A DNA stretch of 64,000 bases from Heptranchias perlo (Eukaryota). The position numbers and the translations under genes were made by a program. Where the stretch lies: contig NC_090365.1 of assembly GCF_035084215.1 (NCBI RefSeq), positions 11,222,001 to 11,286,000 of the forward strand. Direction: 5' to 3'. Positions 8,381-13,105 of this stretch are shown one piece after another (position 1 is the stretch's first letter; each line of letters opens with the position of its first letter). Below the pieces are notes generated by a model. It had not been told where the DNA came from, did no database searches, and saw only the letters and a list, made by a program, of their open reading frames with translations.

Positions 8381-11280
8381 ATGGGCAACACGCACTCCGA
8401 GGCTCCCGTCCAGCGGGAACGAGATCCGCCACTCCAGGCGGCTGAAGCTCTTCGCCAGGACGGAGGGGATGACGAGGCGAGCAGGAGATCAAGCCCCGGG
8501 GCGAAAGAGGAGCAGCAGAGAACACCGCCCTGCGCTGCCGGAGCCACCGCGGAGTCACAACAGGCGCGAGACGCGGGCGTGAGCCCCCAACTCAGTTTCA
8601 GCGGCCACCAGGCACCGGCCAGCGCGGCCATCTTGGAGGCCAGGGCCAAGCAGAACCAGGGCAAGAAGAGGAAAATTGCAAAGGCGAGGAAGTGGACCTC
8701 TGGCCAAGGGGCCTTTCAGGACATTGTGGTGGTTGTGGACAAGTTGACCAACGAGAGGGTCCACTGTCCTCGGAGAACAGAGCAGGACAGGTGGGCACAC
8801 TCACCCAAAGCCAATGAGGGAGTGGCTCCGGCTCAGTCCACTCCTGCACCAGCCCTCAGCGTATGCCAACAAGAGAAGGAACTGGCATCGGGAAACCAAA
8901 CCCAGCCTCAGAGGCCTGCAACAAACGCTGAGACTAAAGATGGCGCTAACCAGAATGCCTCCAATGCACACACGGCCGGTGCATGCGGCGAACAAAGCAG
9001 TGACGCTGGCACTGTCTCAAAGCCGAGGGGGCAGGAGGAGCCCGCGGAGAGTGCCCTCCATTTTCTCTCACCCGCCAGCCAGAGAGCAGTCGCAGCCAAA
9101 ACAGGCAAGAGAGCTCAGATTGCTTGCACCCTGCAGAGTCCCCAAAGCAAGCAGGGGCCGGCCAAGGGGCAGAACGCGCAGGCGGCCATCAACGGCAAGG
9201 AGTCGCCCTGCAAACTGATCAAACTGAGTATAATACGGTCCCCTCCCAGCCCTCAGGTCACCAGTCCAGCCACAGGCGACAAGGGGCAGCTGCAGCCGTT
9301 CAACAGCGACAGCCAGAAAGAACAGGGGAAAGGCAAACCCCACCAGGAAAAGCCTTCTGACGCCCTGCAGGCCAAGCAGGCCACCGCCGACGGGGTCTGG
9401 GAGCAGCCGAAGGCCGGCGGGAGCACCAGGAGGCCAAGCGAGCCGGGGGCGGACGTGTCACCCGCCGAGGGTCCAAAGTGCGCCAGCGAGCCTCCGCCCG
9501 GGAGCGAGGCCGTCCCAAAGCGCGCGGGGAGCGCAAGGAGCGAAGCTGCTCCCGTCGACGCCCAGGGGGCGCTTGGCCAAGGGGCGGACGTGGCCCCTTG
9601 GGTGCCAGCCGGCCGCCTGAAAACGCACTCTTTTCTCAATAAGCGGACTGCGCACGCGGAGCAAGGCTCGAACGGGACGGACAAAACGGAGCCGGCGGTG
9701 GACCTGCCTCCGTTGCCACCCTGTGCCAAGGCGGCAACGGCGACACACCGAGCCAAGCAAGGAGCCCCTTCTGGCATTTCATACGCGGAGGCGTTGAAGC
9801 AGGTCCCCCTGCTGAGAAGCGCCCAAGAAGTCAGATATCCCACGAAGGAGGTCCGTGCCCAAGCCAAGAAAGAAGCGGAGGCGACCAGCCCTGATCGGAA
9901 CGGTGCCAAGGAGCTCGTCGACATGGCGCAGGTCCAAGATGGCGCCGCTGCCGCTTTCAAAAAAAAGCTACCCTTTTATGAGCAGCTGATCGCAAGCCTG
10001 AAAAGTCAAACCCAGAGGCAGAAGGGGACCAAGCCGCAGAGGCAGATCCTGGCCCAAGGAGAACCGTCACAACCCAAGCCAACGAAGGTCGAGTGCGAGC
10101 TGGAGGCCCCAAACCTGTTGCAGGTGCCACCCGAGCCTCTGCTCCTTCCCGGCTCTAAAGCGCAGACCGAGTCACGGTCTCCACAGCCCCTGCAGATTCC
10201 ATCCCCTTCTTCCTTCCAATTCAGGGCACACAGTCAGCTGGCACCACCTGAACAGTCAGCAACGACAAAGGCAGATCCCAAGTTTATGCAGTGGTTTCAG
10301 TCGCAGCAGCTGGATCAGCCCATCTTTCAGTTCCAGAGCAAACTAGGGCACAGGACCAATCCGCAGGAACAAGCTGAGGCCACCTCCAATGTTTCTTTTG
10401 AGCCCGTGTGTCAGACTGTGGTCTATCCACAGAACCCAGTTCCGATGAGTGGAACAGTGCCTCAACTAAACACCTCCATTCAGCTCCAGTCCCAGTCCTG
10501 GCTACGGCAACAAATTGAAGCCCAATGCAAACTGCAGGTGCACTCTCAAACCCAGCCCTGGTCCGTGTCCATGAATTCACCCCCTCCATTGTATACCCAA
10601 CCGCAACTCAATACACAGTCCATACTTGGCAACCCGGCTTCAGATCAGTTCCCAATCTGGCCCCTTCTTCAGAGCCAAACGCAGGCACAGGCAAAGTTTA
10701 GTGCAATCACTCATCTCCAATGCCAGCAACACCCTAAGCCTACAATCCAGACGCCACTTCAGCTACAGATATCATGCAGCACTCAGCAACAATCAGCAGA
10801 GCTAGCTCAGTCTCAGTTACCGGCCCAGATGAAGTTGGAATTGCCGCAGCCACAGAAACAAATTCAGGTCCAGCACCAAGCCCAGACCCAAGCTGCTTGT
10901 AAAGTCCAGCTCCAACCTGAATCCAAAGGTAATTCCAAACTTTCAGCTCCAACTCAGCCCAAAATGGCGACCAAGCCTCAGAAGCATGACCAATTTCCGC
11001 CCAAAGCTTCGGTCCAAACCACATCGAAGACCAAACCACAACCCCAAGCCAAAGGACGGAAGGCCCAGCCCCCTTTCCTTAACCAACAACCCCTTCAAAG
11101 GCAGGAGCCAGTCAAAGTTCAGGCAGAAACAGAGCCAGCGGCCGAGGAGAAGTCATCGGTTAGGCGGCCAACGGGGCGCTGGTCGGCATTTCAAATAGAC
11201 AAAACCTGCACCAGGAAGTGTCACTGCAGACACCGAGAAGACCAGGGGTCGTCACATCTGCCGAGGAACATAGCCACTTG
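8381..11280 (+). CDS. GGN: GGN large coding exon (acceptor tttcag ends 8349, exon starts 8350)
   Basis: 967-codon ORF; donor TG|GTGAGT at 11280/11281 splits the Trp codon (phase 2). Confidence 0.9.
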
Positions 11281-13105
11281 GTGAGTTCACTGAGGAAGTC
11301 TCGCAATAGTTGGGTAAAGTGGAGGGGAGCAAAAGGCTTCACCATCAGTTCTCCCGTTAAACACCATAAACCACCACAATGAACTGTGATCAATTTGAAC
11401 TATATTTATTTTCTGAACCAACATCTAGTGTTGCCAACTCTGGTTGGATGTATTCCTGGAGGTTTCATCACATGACCTCCCGCCTCCACTATTGGTCACC
11501 CAACCCATCCGTCCTCACCTTCCTGCACCAATTGGAAAGTGAACACACCATTACCCGATTGGATGATTCTTATCTGCCATTCGGACTTTTTTTTAAACCC
11601 ATCCCCAATATTTTTATAACTAATAAACAAGTGTTCAAAGAAAATGAAAAAGTAAAATTTCTTTAACGCCCCTATGATTTTTCTCCCGCGTGTTGCGCCC
11701 AGCAGTGGACCTGGAGATTAATCTTCAATTCCTGGAGACCCCAGGGCAAGCCTGGAGGGTTGGCAACCCTACCAACACCACAGCCACTGGCCCAGCATGC
11801 TCACTAGCTCTGGATTCCAATTCAGCAGCGACACTCAATGCTAAAACGGGGGAACAATAGGCCCACAATTTTACATTAAGTTTAATTTTTAAAGGGCCCC
11901 TGATGTTCATATAACAAGGTAATTAAAGGGGCGCTGCCTCCTGAGGAGTTTTGATAGATTCTCCTTATTTACTCTGTTTCCAGTGGCAGGAGGGTCAGTA
12001 ACCAGAGGACACAGATTTAAAGTAATTGGCAAAAGAAGCAGGCGGTGAGGGGAAATGAGAAATATTTACACGCATCGAGTTGTTACGATCTGGAATGCGC
12101 TGCCTGATTCAATAATAACTTTCAAAAAGGAATTGGATAAATACTTGAAGAGGAAAAATTTGCAGGACAATGGGGAAAGGGCAGGGACTGGGACTAATTG
12201 GATAGTGCTTTCAGGGAGCAGGCATGATAGGCCAAATGGCCATGATTCTATGCAAAGGTGCTCAGCCATTGTTTCTTTTAATCTGGGAAGAGAGACAGGG
12301 GCTTCAGTTGTCAGTGTCGCACATGGTTGATGCAGCACAGATCATGGTGTCATGCAAACCAAAAATTGCTGCCCCTTCAACCCATCAAATTCCAGAACCA
12401 GGAACCACCCAGCTCTTAGAAAATGCGAGTATGGCCAATAACATGGGAACAGGAGGAGGCCACTCAGCTCCTCAAGCCTGTCCCGCCATTCAATTAGGTC
12501 ATGGCTGATCTGTACCTCAACCCCATTTACCTGCCTTTGCTCCATTGGGGCGTAGGTTTTCAGATTTCTGGCTGTCTGAGCTAAGGCATACCAGATGCCA
12601 AGAGCACAGCGCCTGACGAATTCTGTCATTTGTTGTGTGTTTATTGACTTACCATCCTGATATTTTTGTTGCTGAATATTAAAGATAAAAGGTTTTCCTT
12701 TGGGTAGTTGACACTGACTTTCAGAAGTTTGGGGTGGAGGGCCCCTCCCACACAGAAAAGTTGGAAAACCACCAACTAAAGGCCCCTCACTGCCCATTTA
12801 ACGCCTCCAGATCCGGGGGGATTTCAGGCACGGCCTAGAGAGGTTGCAGGTACGGTAATGGAGGTTTTTGATGACCAAGTTGACTCGCTGATGATTACTT
12901 TGAACACCGGCCCATTCTTGCAGCCTCCGTCTCAGACCAATCTTGCCATTCATCACTTCCTCCTTTTTCTTCACACAGGACCAACTCAGTGAAGGAACCA
13001 TTCTGCGAGACACCCTGGGTGAGGACAGCAGTGCTCGCAGGGTCCCTGGTAGCTGGAACCAAGTTCTGTATGGATCACTTCAAGGCAAACAATATACTCA
13101 GCTGA
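8381..13105 (+). CDS. GGN: Gametogenetin-like gene (join 8381..11280,12979..13105; 1008 aa)
   Basis: N-term MGNTHSE vs human GGN MGNLQSE; GISYAEALKQVP vs GAISYAEVLKQGP; WSAFQIDKTCTRKCHCRH..LPRNIATW|TNSVKEPFCETPWVRTAVLAGSLVA vs WLPFQVLNSCPCKCYCHH..LPRNVSAW-LSTSTNHLGEPPWVATIKLSGSLVA (recalled). Convergent with PSMD8 as in human. Confidence 0.88.
11426..11771 (+). mobile_element. hAT-like MITE in the GGN intron
   Basis: Same TIRs; TSD ccaacatc/ccaacacc. Confidence 0.85.
12979..13105 (+). CDS. GGN: GGN terminal coding exon
   Basis: Pyrimidine tract + cacag acceptor; phase-2 G completes Trp; encodes TNSVKEPFCETPWVRTAVLAGSLVAGTKFCMDHFKANNILS*; AATAAA at 13438-13443. Confidence 0.88.

Follow-up and report, generated by a model that had tools for sequence, protein, structure and literature searches.

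We report that a 64,000-nucleotide stretch of the genome of the shark Heptranchias perlo (assembly GCF_035084215.1, contig NC_090365.1, positions 11,222,001 to 11,286,000, forward strand), hereafter the window, almost certainly contains, judging from its sequence, the single-copy shark orthologue of gametogenetin (GGN). Pfam matches, reciprocal profile searches, a shared intron position, the single copy and synteny agree with each other, and support an origin of GGN at least as early as the jawed-vertebrate ancestor, as the first-pass annotation of this DNA had proposed. Coordinates given below are those of the window, and amino acid (aa) numbers refer to the spliced 1008-aa shark protein unless another species is named.

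Structure of the shark GGN gene

The following elements were identified at the locus.

8350 to 11280, plus strand: long first coding exon of GGN, with a 31-nt leader, 966 codons and 2 nt; Gln/Ala/Pro-rich and mostly disordered.
8350 to 8445, plus strand: upstream open reading frame (ORF) of 31 codons, in another frame and overlapping the GGN start, found by reading the sequence.
11281 to 12978, plus strand: GT-AG intron of 1698 nt, phase 2, within a Trp codon, identified by its splice sites.
12979 to 13105, plus strand: last coding exon (1 nt, 41 codons and TGA) encoding the long C-terminal helix, identified by PF15685 and the gene models of relatives.
13330 to 13661, plus strand: candidate poly(A) signals by motif, ATTAAA at 13330 and 13425 and AATAAA at 13438 and 13656.

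The ORF listing of the window gives a 967-aa frame at 8381-11284 on the plus strand, which ends there because the unspliced DNA reads TGG TGA (Trp-stop). A splice donor (TG/GTGAGT, GT at 11281) follows position 11280, and an acceptor with a strong pyrimidine tract ending in CACAG precedes 12979; joining 2900 and 127 nt across this phase 2 intron yields 3027 nt, or 1008 aa, with a single, terminal stop and none internal. When 33 candidate acceptors in 11330-14500 were scored with a profile of 19 lobe-finned and tetrapod GGN tails, 12979 ranked top with 95.1 bits and the runner-up reached 48.9 bits. The first-pass annotation had proposed this in-phase GT-AG junction (11280/12979) to a 41-codon exon unseen by the ORF track, and both the splice and the resulting length were borne out; its 967-codon first exon has to be corrected, as the exon begins at 8350 and holds 966 complete codons and 2 nt, the 967th codon (Trp) being split.

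An AG acceptor is found at 8348-8349, and therefore at least one more exon and the 5' end of the gene lie farther upstream. As the reading frame is closed just 5' of the ATG at 8381, the upstream exon would be non-coding for the GGN protein. The ATG itself lies in a strong context, with A at -3 and G at +4, and the 31-codon upstream ORF is a putative element of translational control. Two plus-strand stretches, 3750-3947 and ~5790-5849, end in good GT donors and are candidate non-coding 5' exons of GGN; the former is also preceded by an AG acceptor, and has stops in two frames and one frame open.

The last exon is also found in the gene models of three other cartilaginous fishes (catshark, electric ray and stingray), and eight database records, from sharks/rays/skates, a sturgeon, a frog and a rodent, terminate exactly at the split Trp. 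The layout of two coding exons with an intron in the conserved Trp codon was read directly in the window and elsewhere inferred from these records, whose ends are those expected from read-through of this intron and which suggest, indirectly, that it dates back to the origin of the gene. In human GGN, codon 424 is placed by PMC6993856 in the 'first coding exon'.

The same records, which represent four vertebrate groups and one of which comes from an assembled public run (P0005), could instead mean that the unspliced 967-aa form, ending at Trp without the last helix, is a real or even the major product, as a regulated short isoform. Its stop lies directly after the donor, and three GGN isoforms are described in mammals (PMC3579931). 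However, the last exon is more strongly conserved than any other part of the protein, with 85-95% identity to catshark and electric ray, and it is included in three gene models, while the truncated records are more simply explained as gene predictions that missed a small exon. We therefore consider the 967-aa product unlikely; under the best overall explanation, which includes orthology and the scaffold mechanism discussed below, shark GGN very probably encodes the long (GGN1-type) form. RNA contigs (three runs from one sample, tissue unstated) gave no cover at 8908-11385 or 12802-13509, which speaks neither for nor against expression.

Identification as gametogenetin

PF15685, the GGN family, was the sole Pfam family matched in the window, by two of the five pieces searched. 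The end of the long exon matched family positions 594-628 (E=0.0012, 18.4 bits) and the last exon matched positions 638-658 (E=0.02, 14.3 bits), so that the matched positions are consecutive. The spliced catshark tail, which is 82-95% identical to the window there, scored 52.4 bits (E=6e-14) and passed the curated cut-off of 27 bits; the Pfam scores of the window are those of its separate pieces. All seven aligned pieces matched GGN only, and no other family fitted the C-terminal block better, as expected from the first-pass identification. The C-terminal Cys/His-LPxN-W-helix module, characteristic of PF15685, is a best reciprocal match to named GGN.

The spliced 80-aa tail scored 94 bits, compared with at most 11.2 for 1000 shuffles. 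In the reverse direction, a mammal-only profile (8 proteins) gave 52.0 bits to the spliced protein, 21.8 to the unspliced ORF and at most 11.9 to 1000 tail shuffles, and a lobe-finned/tetrapod profile (19 proteins) gave 90.4, 40.4 and at most 11.2 bits, respectively. Genome searches returned one match for the tail of the first exon, and one match plus a stop-riddled hit at E=1.7 for the last exon, both counts being lower bounds. In a tree of the tails, cartilaginous fishes (100/99), ray-finned fishes (99/98) and mammals (100/99) each formed one group.

An unrelated low-complexity protein with a chance likeness to GGN would fit the NCBI names of the catshark and sawfish proteins ('proline-rich protein 36-like') and the lack of any Pfam match to full-length proteins, but it would leave unexplained the E value of the catshark tail, the collinear islands, the shared intron and the synteny. 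We rejected this reading on the match of the catshark tail to PF15685 and the reciprocal profile scores, and give it a negligible probability.

Conserved islands in a largely disordered protein

Five conserved elements of the GGN protein were located in the exons.

8381 to 8401, plus strand: N-terminal MGNxxSE motif, which fits the N-myristoylation consensus.
8666 to 8701, plus strand: basic cluster aa 96-107, a candidate nuclear localisation signal, identified by invariance.
9776 to 9802, plus strand: ISYAEALKQ island (short helix), identified by motif count and profile.
9959 to 10009, plus strand: KKKLPFYEQLIASLKSQ helix, aa 527-543, in cartilaginous fishes and coelacanth only among 36 family members.
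11165 to 11280, plus strand: first half of the C-terminal module, with W-x-x-F, Cys-x3-Cys-x-Cys-x-His, LPRN and the split Trp, identified by PF15685.

The three islands named in the first-pass annotation, namely the N-terminus, ISYAEALKQ and the tail from 11165, were all present. The shark protein is rich in Gln (12.7%), Ala (12.3%) and Pro (10.3%), and in comparison with catshark 25-75% of its residues are identical along the linker and 82-95% within aa 921-1000. In an AlphaFold2 model of the electric-ray protein, 534 of 820 residues have a predicted confidence (pLDDT) below 50, and four helices were seen: the SYA island, aa 409-425 (ray numbering) and two in the tail. These models and comparisons show GGN, at the level of prediction, as largely disordered with few short conserved islands.

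Islands were counted in 36 family members, eight from cartilaginous fishes and 28 from bony vertebrates. MGNxxSE is present in 29/36; its 12-mer is weak by score against shuffles, but always terminal. Among 57 long family members, a sample that includes near-duplicate rodent isoforms, 44 start with MG, and these carry Asn3 in 43 and Ser6 in 39 cases. In the basic cluster, K96, R97, K98, I99, K101 and K104 are invariant in all eight cartilaginous fishes, and coelacanth has a weak match at the same position (4.2 bits, shuffle maximum 2.5). SYAxxLK was found in 25/36 members, with tetrapods and coelacanth reaching up to 17.7 bits against a shark-only profile (shuffle maximum 3.5), and the MGNxxSE and SYAxxLK islands stand in the same order across the family.

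The 17-residue helix at aa 527-543, which was not among the three islands of the first-pass annotation, is the best-conserved block among cartilaginous fishes. It is present in 8/8 of these and in one of the 28 bony vertebrates, the coelacanth (29.3 bits; next best -1.2; 560 shuffles at most 3.1), and has pLDDT 89 in the electric-ray model. As it occurs both in sharks and in a lobe-finned fish, the helix must be ancestral, with at least two losses within the sampled species. The shark islands at aa 270-292 and 408-428 had no match above shuffles in the 28 bony vertebrates.

The tail (~70 residues, Cys/His plus helix), alone among the modules, is retained in every jawed vertebrate examined. Its Phe, Cys, Trp and Thr are invariant in 36/36 members; the Cys-x3-Cys-x-Cys-x-His pattern is complete in 45 of 67 tails, with the second Cys replaced in 17, mostly from ray-finned fishes. 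The helix of the last exon has pLDDT 85-89 in the electric-ray model, and an isolated alligator tail was modelled with the same two helices. A Foldseek search of the tail model against PDB gave no matches, the tail profile reached a best E of 0.54 against PDB sequences, and in the ESM Atlas, leaving out GGN clusters, the best score of 0.79 (small mitochondrial outer-membrane proteins) fell inside the range of shuffled proteins. The hydrophobic moments of the islands were unremarkable (ranks 95-225 of 997).

Small and apolar residues are abundant in the long terminal helix, which could be a membrane anchor, for example a tail anchor in sperm-midpiece mitochondria, rather than a protein-docking helix; in mouse, GGN1 is reported to localise around the nucleus and to the acrosome and sperm tail (PMC6156456). 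However, the best 19-residue Kyte-Doolittle mean is only 1.08, Arg/Lys occur within the helix, and the invariance of Trp, Thr and Pro suggests a specific interface. An anchor thus seems rather unlikely, if somewhat less so than the unspliced product, and we favour a docking role for this helix.

Gene neighbourhood

Two neighbouring genes lie downstream of GGN in the window.

14609 to 31461, minus strand: PSMD8, tail to tail with GGN; ATG at 31461, stop at 16993-16991, 3' untranslated region (UTR) to ~14600.
37089 to 45343, plus strand: FAM98 exons, head to head with PSMD8; PF10239 in 3/78 ORFs scanned.

PF10075 matched at 24895-25044, 21762-21899 and 18573-18698, in a gene that we take to be PSMD8, not CSN8 or eIF3K, from sequence likeness. 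RNA contigs carry its last junction (17128/18579) and place its 3' end at ~14600, ~1.5 kb from the GGN stop, in agreement with the convergent arrangement that the first-pass annotation gives for human. The PSMD8 3' UTR (14609-16990, minus strand; ~2.4 kb) holds repeat fragments and has contig cover without mismatches. The FAM98 gene would be FAM98C by position. A SPRED-type domain was found 21.7 kb upstream of the window on the strand of GGN (G000:C44:11200290), and by elimination among seven Sprouty-domain loci it would belong to SPRED3, which would place GGN between PSMD8 and SPRED3. The interval between SPRED3 and GGN contained no cellular gene by Pfam in 150 ORFs (149 of the 170 listed, leaving out tandem-repeat ORFs, and one added), with window 1-8349 read by eye only. 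The shark order is then SPRED3 (plus), GGN (plus), PSMD8 (minus) and FAM98 (plus), from G000:C44:11200290 to window 45343. The human order used for comparison is PSMD8, GGN, SPRED3, FAM98C, with the position of FAM98C and the strands taken as background.

According to PMC7282656, human 19q13.2 carries YIF1B, CATSPERG, PSMD8, GGN and SPRED3 in that order within ~100 kb. On the shark contig, CATSPERG is ~1 Mb away, not adjacent as in human, and a YIF1 gene is ~2.9 Mb away. The GGN cluster is, on these gene orders, kept but locally rearranged in one lineage.

An alternative is that the window gene is a GGN-like ohnologue, that is a paralogue. Alignment limited to short islands and a local gene order unlike that of human would suit a paralogue, but the genome holds one copy (a lower bound), the neighbours are the same as those of human GGN, and the tail tree has no second lineage, so that we regard a paralogue as very improbable, although less so than chance likeness. 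Further points weigh against orthology, or against what we build on it. The homology rests on ~100 of 1008 residues; each window piece alone scores under the Pfam cut-off, none of the seven full-length cartilaginous-fish proteins has any Pfam match, and a scan of the genome with PF15685, stricter in its first stage, returned nothing. The proteins in the reverse profiles were first found via the shark profile and are not fully independent, and their names come from NCBI. The 79-column tail tree misses the species tree at depth, splitting amphibians, and modelling of the isolated tail gave no confident fold (pLDDT 67, pTM 0.30). The KPKFxW island of tetrapods and coelacanth is not significant in the shark (1.3 bits, shuffle maximum 6.6), where aa 633-653 are collinear with KPKFxW...F and have similar letters. 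Gene order is rearranged, with SPRED3 on the strand of GGN and FAM98 past PSMD8, if the human strands that we assume are correct. Finally, GGN function in the shark is transferred from mouse.

Several other features were seen in and around the window. A short GC-rich exon-like stretch without Pfam match lies between SPRED3 and GGN (upstream flank L010:9940-10000 to window 1-60). GC- or G-rich tandem repeat arrays occupy 1350-3560, 4010-4990, 30500-31250 and 47350-47780; the last two, one inside the first intron of PSMD8 and the other adjoining a probable FAM98 exon, yield long spurious ORFs. LINE remnants (reverse transcriptase and esterase-like ORF1 pieces) were found at L011:7817-8281 and 9587-10000 (minus strand) and at window 17982-18341, 40710-41048 and 56067-56414. 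The YIF1 gene was found twice with identical scores (G000:C46:8849007-8859676 and C757:7772-18441), probably reflecting a duplicated haplotype contig in the assembly.

Relatives of shark GGN and their names

A forward search with a profile of shark and ray tails against 1.84 billion representatives gave 40 matches at E<=0.001, 39 of which carry the GGN tail. The remaining match, a cyprinid protein of 2208 aa (P0011), was dropped as a false positive, with nine weak stretches and no Cys/His pattern. Names are available for 35 of the 40 (mammals, reptiles, a bird, amphibians, coelacanth, gar, bowfin, sturgeon, teleosts, sharks and rays), and the other five look mammalian or frog-like by sequence. 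This tail search, which the first-pass annotation had suggested, recovered proteins already named gametogenetin in groups ranging from mammals to coelacanth and gar. No jawless vertebrate or invertebrate, and no chimaera, lungfish, bichir or zebrafish, appeared among the named matches of this single search with a shark-only profile, and relatives in jawless vertebrates or invertebrates may still exist.

The name 'gametogenetin' or '-like' is carried by records from rodents, marsupials, tortoises, alligator, agama (UniRef), three frogs, a caecilian, coelacanth (older record), gar and electric ray, while those from axolotl, two frogs, an eagle, bowfin, sturgeon, nine teleosts and most sharks and rays are uncharacterised or misnamed. 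One of the seven cartilaginous-fish relatives (Narcine bancroftii) is named 'gametogenetin-like', and six are hypothetical, uncharacterised, proline-rich protein 36-like or nameless, probably because the full-length proteins match nothing in Pfam. The expectation in the first-pass annotation that the gene would be hidden under an uncharacterised name holds for these six, but not for Narcine bancroftii, gar, coelacanth, caecilian, frogs, turtles and alligator, which are already named. The eagle Morphnus guianensis has an uncharacterised Pro-rich protein of 281 aa with a clear GGN tail, and on this sequence GGN is present in at least one bird. The model of the stingray Hemitrygon akajei lacks six residues around LPRN, just 5' of the intron, which is either a deletion or a modelling error.

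Shark GGN shares with mammalian GGN1 the MGNxxSE start, the SYAxxLK island, the Cys/His-LPxN-W-helix tail, a large first and small last coding exon and the neighbours PSMD8 and SPRED3. It differs in being longer (1008 aa, compared with 561-784 aa for the full-length mammalian proteins compared), in its Gln/Ala-rich rather than Pro/Gly-rich linker, in the extra aa 527-543 helix, the longer C-terminal helix and an at best degenerate KPKFxW, and in having SPRED3 on its own strand, the human strand being assumed. The Narcine bancroftii protein (P0006) and the other cartilaginous-fish models (P0001-P0007, P0069), mostly named proline-rich protein 36-like, basic proline-rich, hypothetical or uncharacterised, have all the islands and the last exon and are 31-56% identical overall, but their linker is shorter (764-944 aa). 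The coelacanth protein XP_014348907.1 (uncharacterised LOC106705031; earlier 'PREDICTED: gametogenetin') is the sole bony vertebrate examined with the aa 527-543 helix, at nearly the same position (521) and 57 rather than 62 aa from the SYA island; unlike the shark protein, it has 1237 aa and a clear KPKFxW island, and identity is ~25% over the first 548 aa. Uncharacterised proteins of teleosts (trout, whitefish, smelt, sardine, anchovy, characin, knifefish and notothenioid), bowfin and sturgeon have the GGN tail and, in most, the MGNxxS start, but the second Cys is replaced, the helix is shorter at its end and the SYA island is often lost.

A possible mechanism for shark GGN

In mouse, GGN1 is reported to co-precipitate with FANCL, FANCD2 and BRCC36, Ggn-null embryos die before implantation, and heterozygotes leave meiotic breaks unrepaired and repair poorly (PMC3579931); the same source cites two-hybrid binding of FANCL by GGN1 and GGN3. 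GGNBP2 is described as binding GGN1 and aiding its nuclear accumulation, and nuclear targeting signals are ascribed to mouse GGN1 (PMC6156456); GGNBP2 docks on CNOT11 (PMC9902336). Mammalian GGN is further characterised by testis-enriched expression in spermatocytes and spermatids, by the short isoforms GGN2 and GGN3, and by the additional partners GGNBP1, CRISP2 and OAZ3. In man, globozoospermia is reported in two brothers homozygous for p.Gly424Alafs*65, with GGN as the candidate gene (PMC6993856). This frameshift would remove the tail from the long form and should spare an ends-only form. In a 100-aa mammalian record (P0036) the first 35 residues are followed directly by the tail, and the record appears from its sequence to be of the GGN3 type; as GGN3 binds FANCL, this would put FANCL binding in the conserved ends. 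FANCL is present in the shark genome, in which an exon is 100% identical over 51 aa to a Heptranchias perlo protein.

By analogy with mouse, shark GGN may act as a non-enzymatic germ-cell scaffold, lipid-tethered and disordered. Its MGNxxS start, which we take to be the textbook N-myristoylation pattern, is probably myristoylated, with reasonable confidence from the motif, and would tie GGN to membranes, and the basic cluster at aa 96-107 may allow nuclear entry. The short helices would be docking sites that fold upon binding, joined by a 900-residue linker that may drift freely, being Gln/Ala/Pro-rich in shark and Pro/Gly-rich in mammals. The Cys/His-plus-helix tail would be the main effector surface; it probably binds a conserved partner, and probably also zinc, the latter at about even confidence. 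Our best guess for the partner, somewhat short of even, is the FANCL/FANCD2/BRCC36/GGNBP2 group of mouse testis, which would implicate GGN in the repair of meiotic breaks and in the shaping of spermatids. A complex prediction with the electric-ray tail (aa 738-820) and electric-ray FANCL, made without alignments and with the controls not folded, scored 0.00, which is neither for nor against binding. Our confidence in the scaffold mechanism as a whole is lower than in orthology.

These elements can be joined in one tentative reading, which we consider rather doubtful as a whole: GGN would be a myristoylated, disordered scaffold with a zinc-binding, helix-tipped tail as its sole universal part; the ancestral docking helix at aa 527-543, nearly identical in sharks and coelacanth, would have been lost twice, in ray-finned fishes and in tetrapods, marking a partner interaction unused by mammals; and the short form made of the two ends would be the minimal essential GGN.

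Implications

No paper on non-mammalian (fish) GGN, GGN evolution or GGN myristoylation, and no residue-level map of GGN, was found in the open-access full text searched, and GGN has no solved structure. Because database names (ray, gar and coelacanth) already imply when GGN arose, dating the gene adds little; the new contributions are a map of its motifs (MGNxxS start, SYAxALK helix, Cys/His-plus-helix tail and aa 527-543 helix) and a list of fish orthologues that lack annotation. From the shark copy one can read which short segments of the floppy GGN protein have persisted since the shark-mammal split. As GGN is essential in mouse and a candidate for human globozoospermia, distant orthologues narrow the protein to ~100 residues worth mutating. 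Their comparison also predicts a lipid modification of GGN, for which the open-access search gave no published report, and fish models for GGN exist under uninformative names. If the joint reading is true, a minimal two-ends form could explain why men with the frameshift are alive but infertile while null mice are embryonic-lethal, and the unannotated teleost copies would make the scaffold and its minimal form testable in fish.

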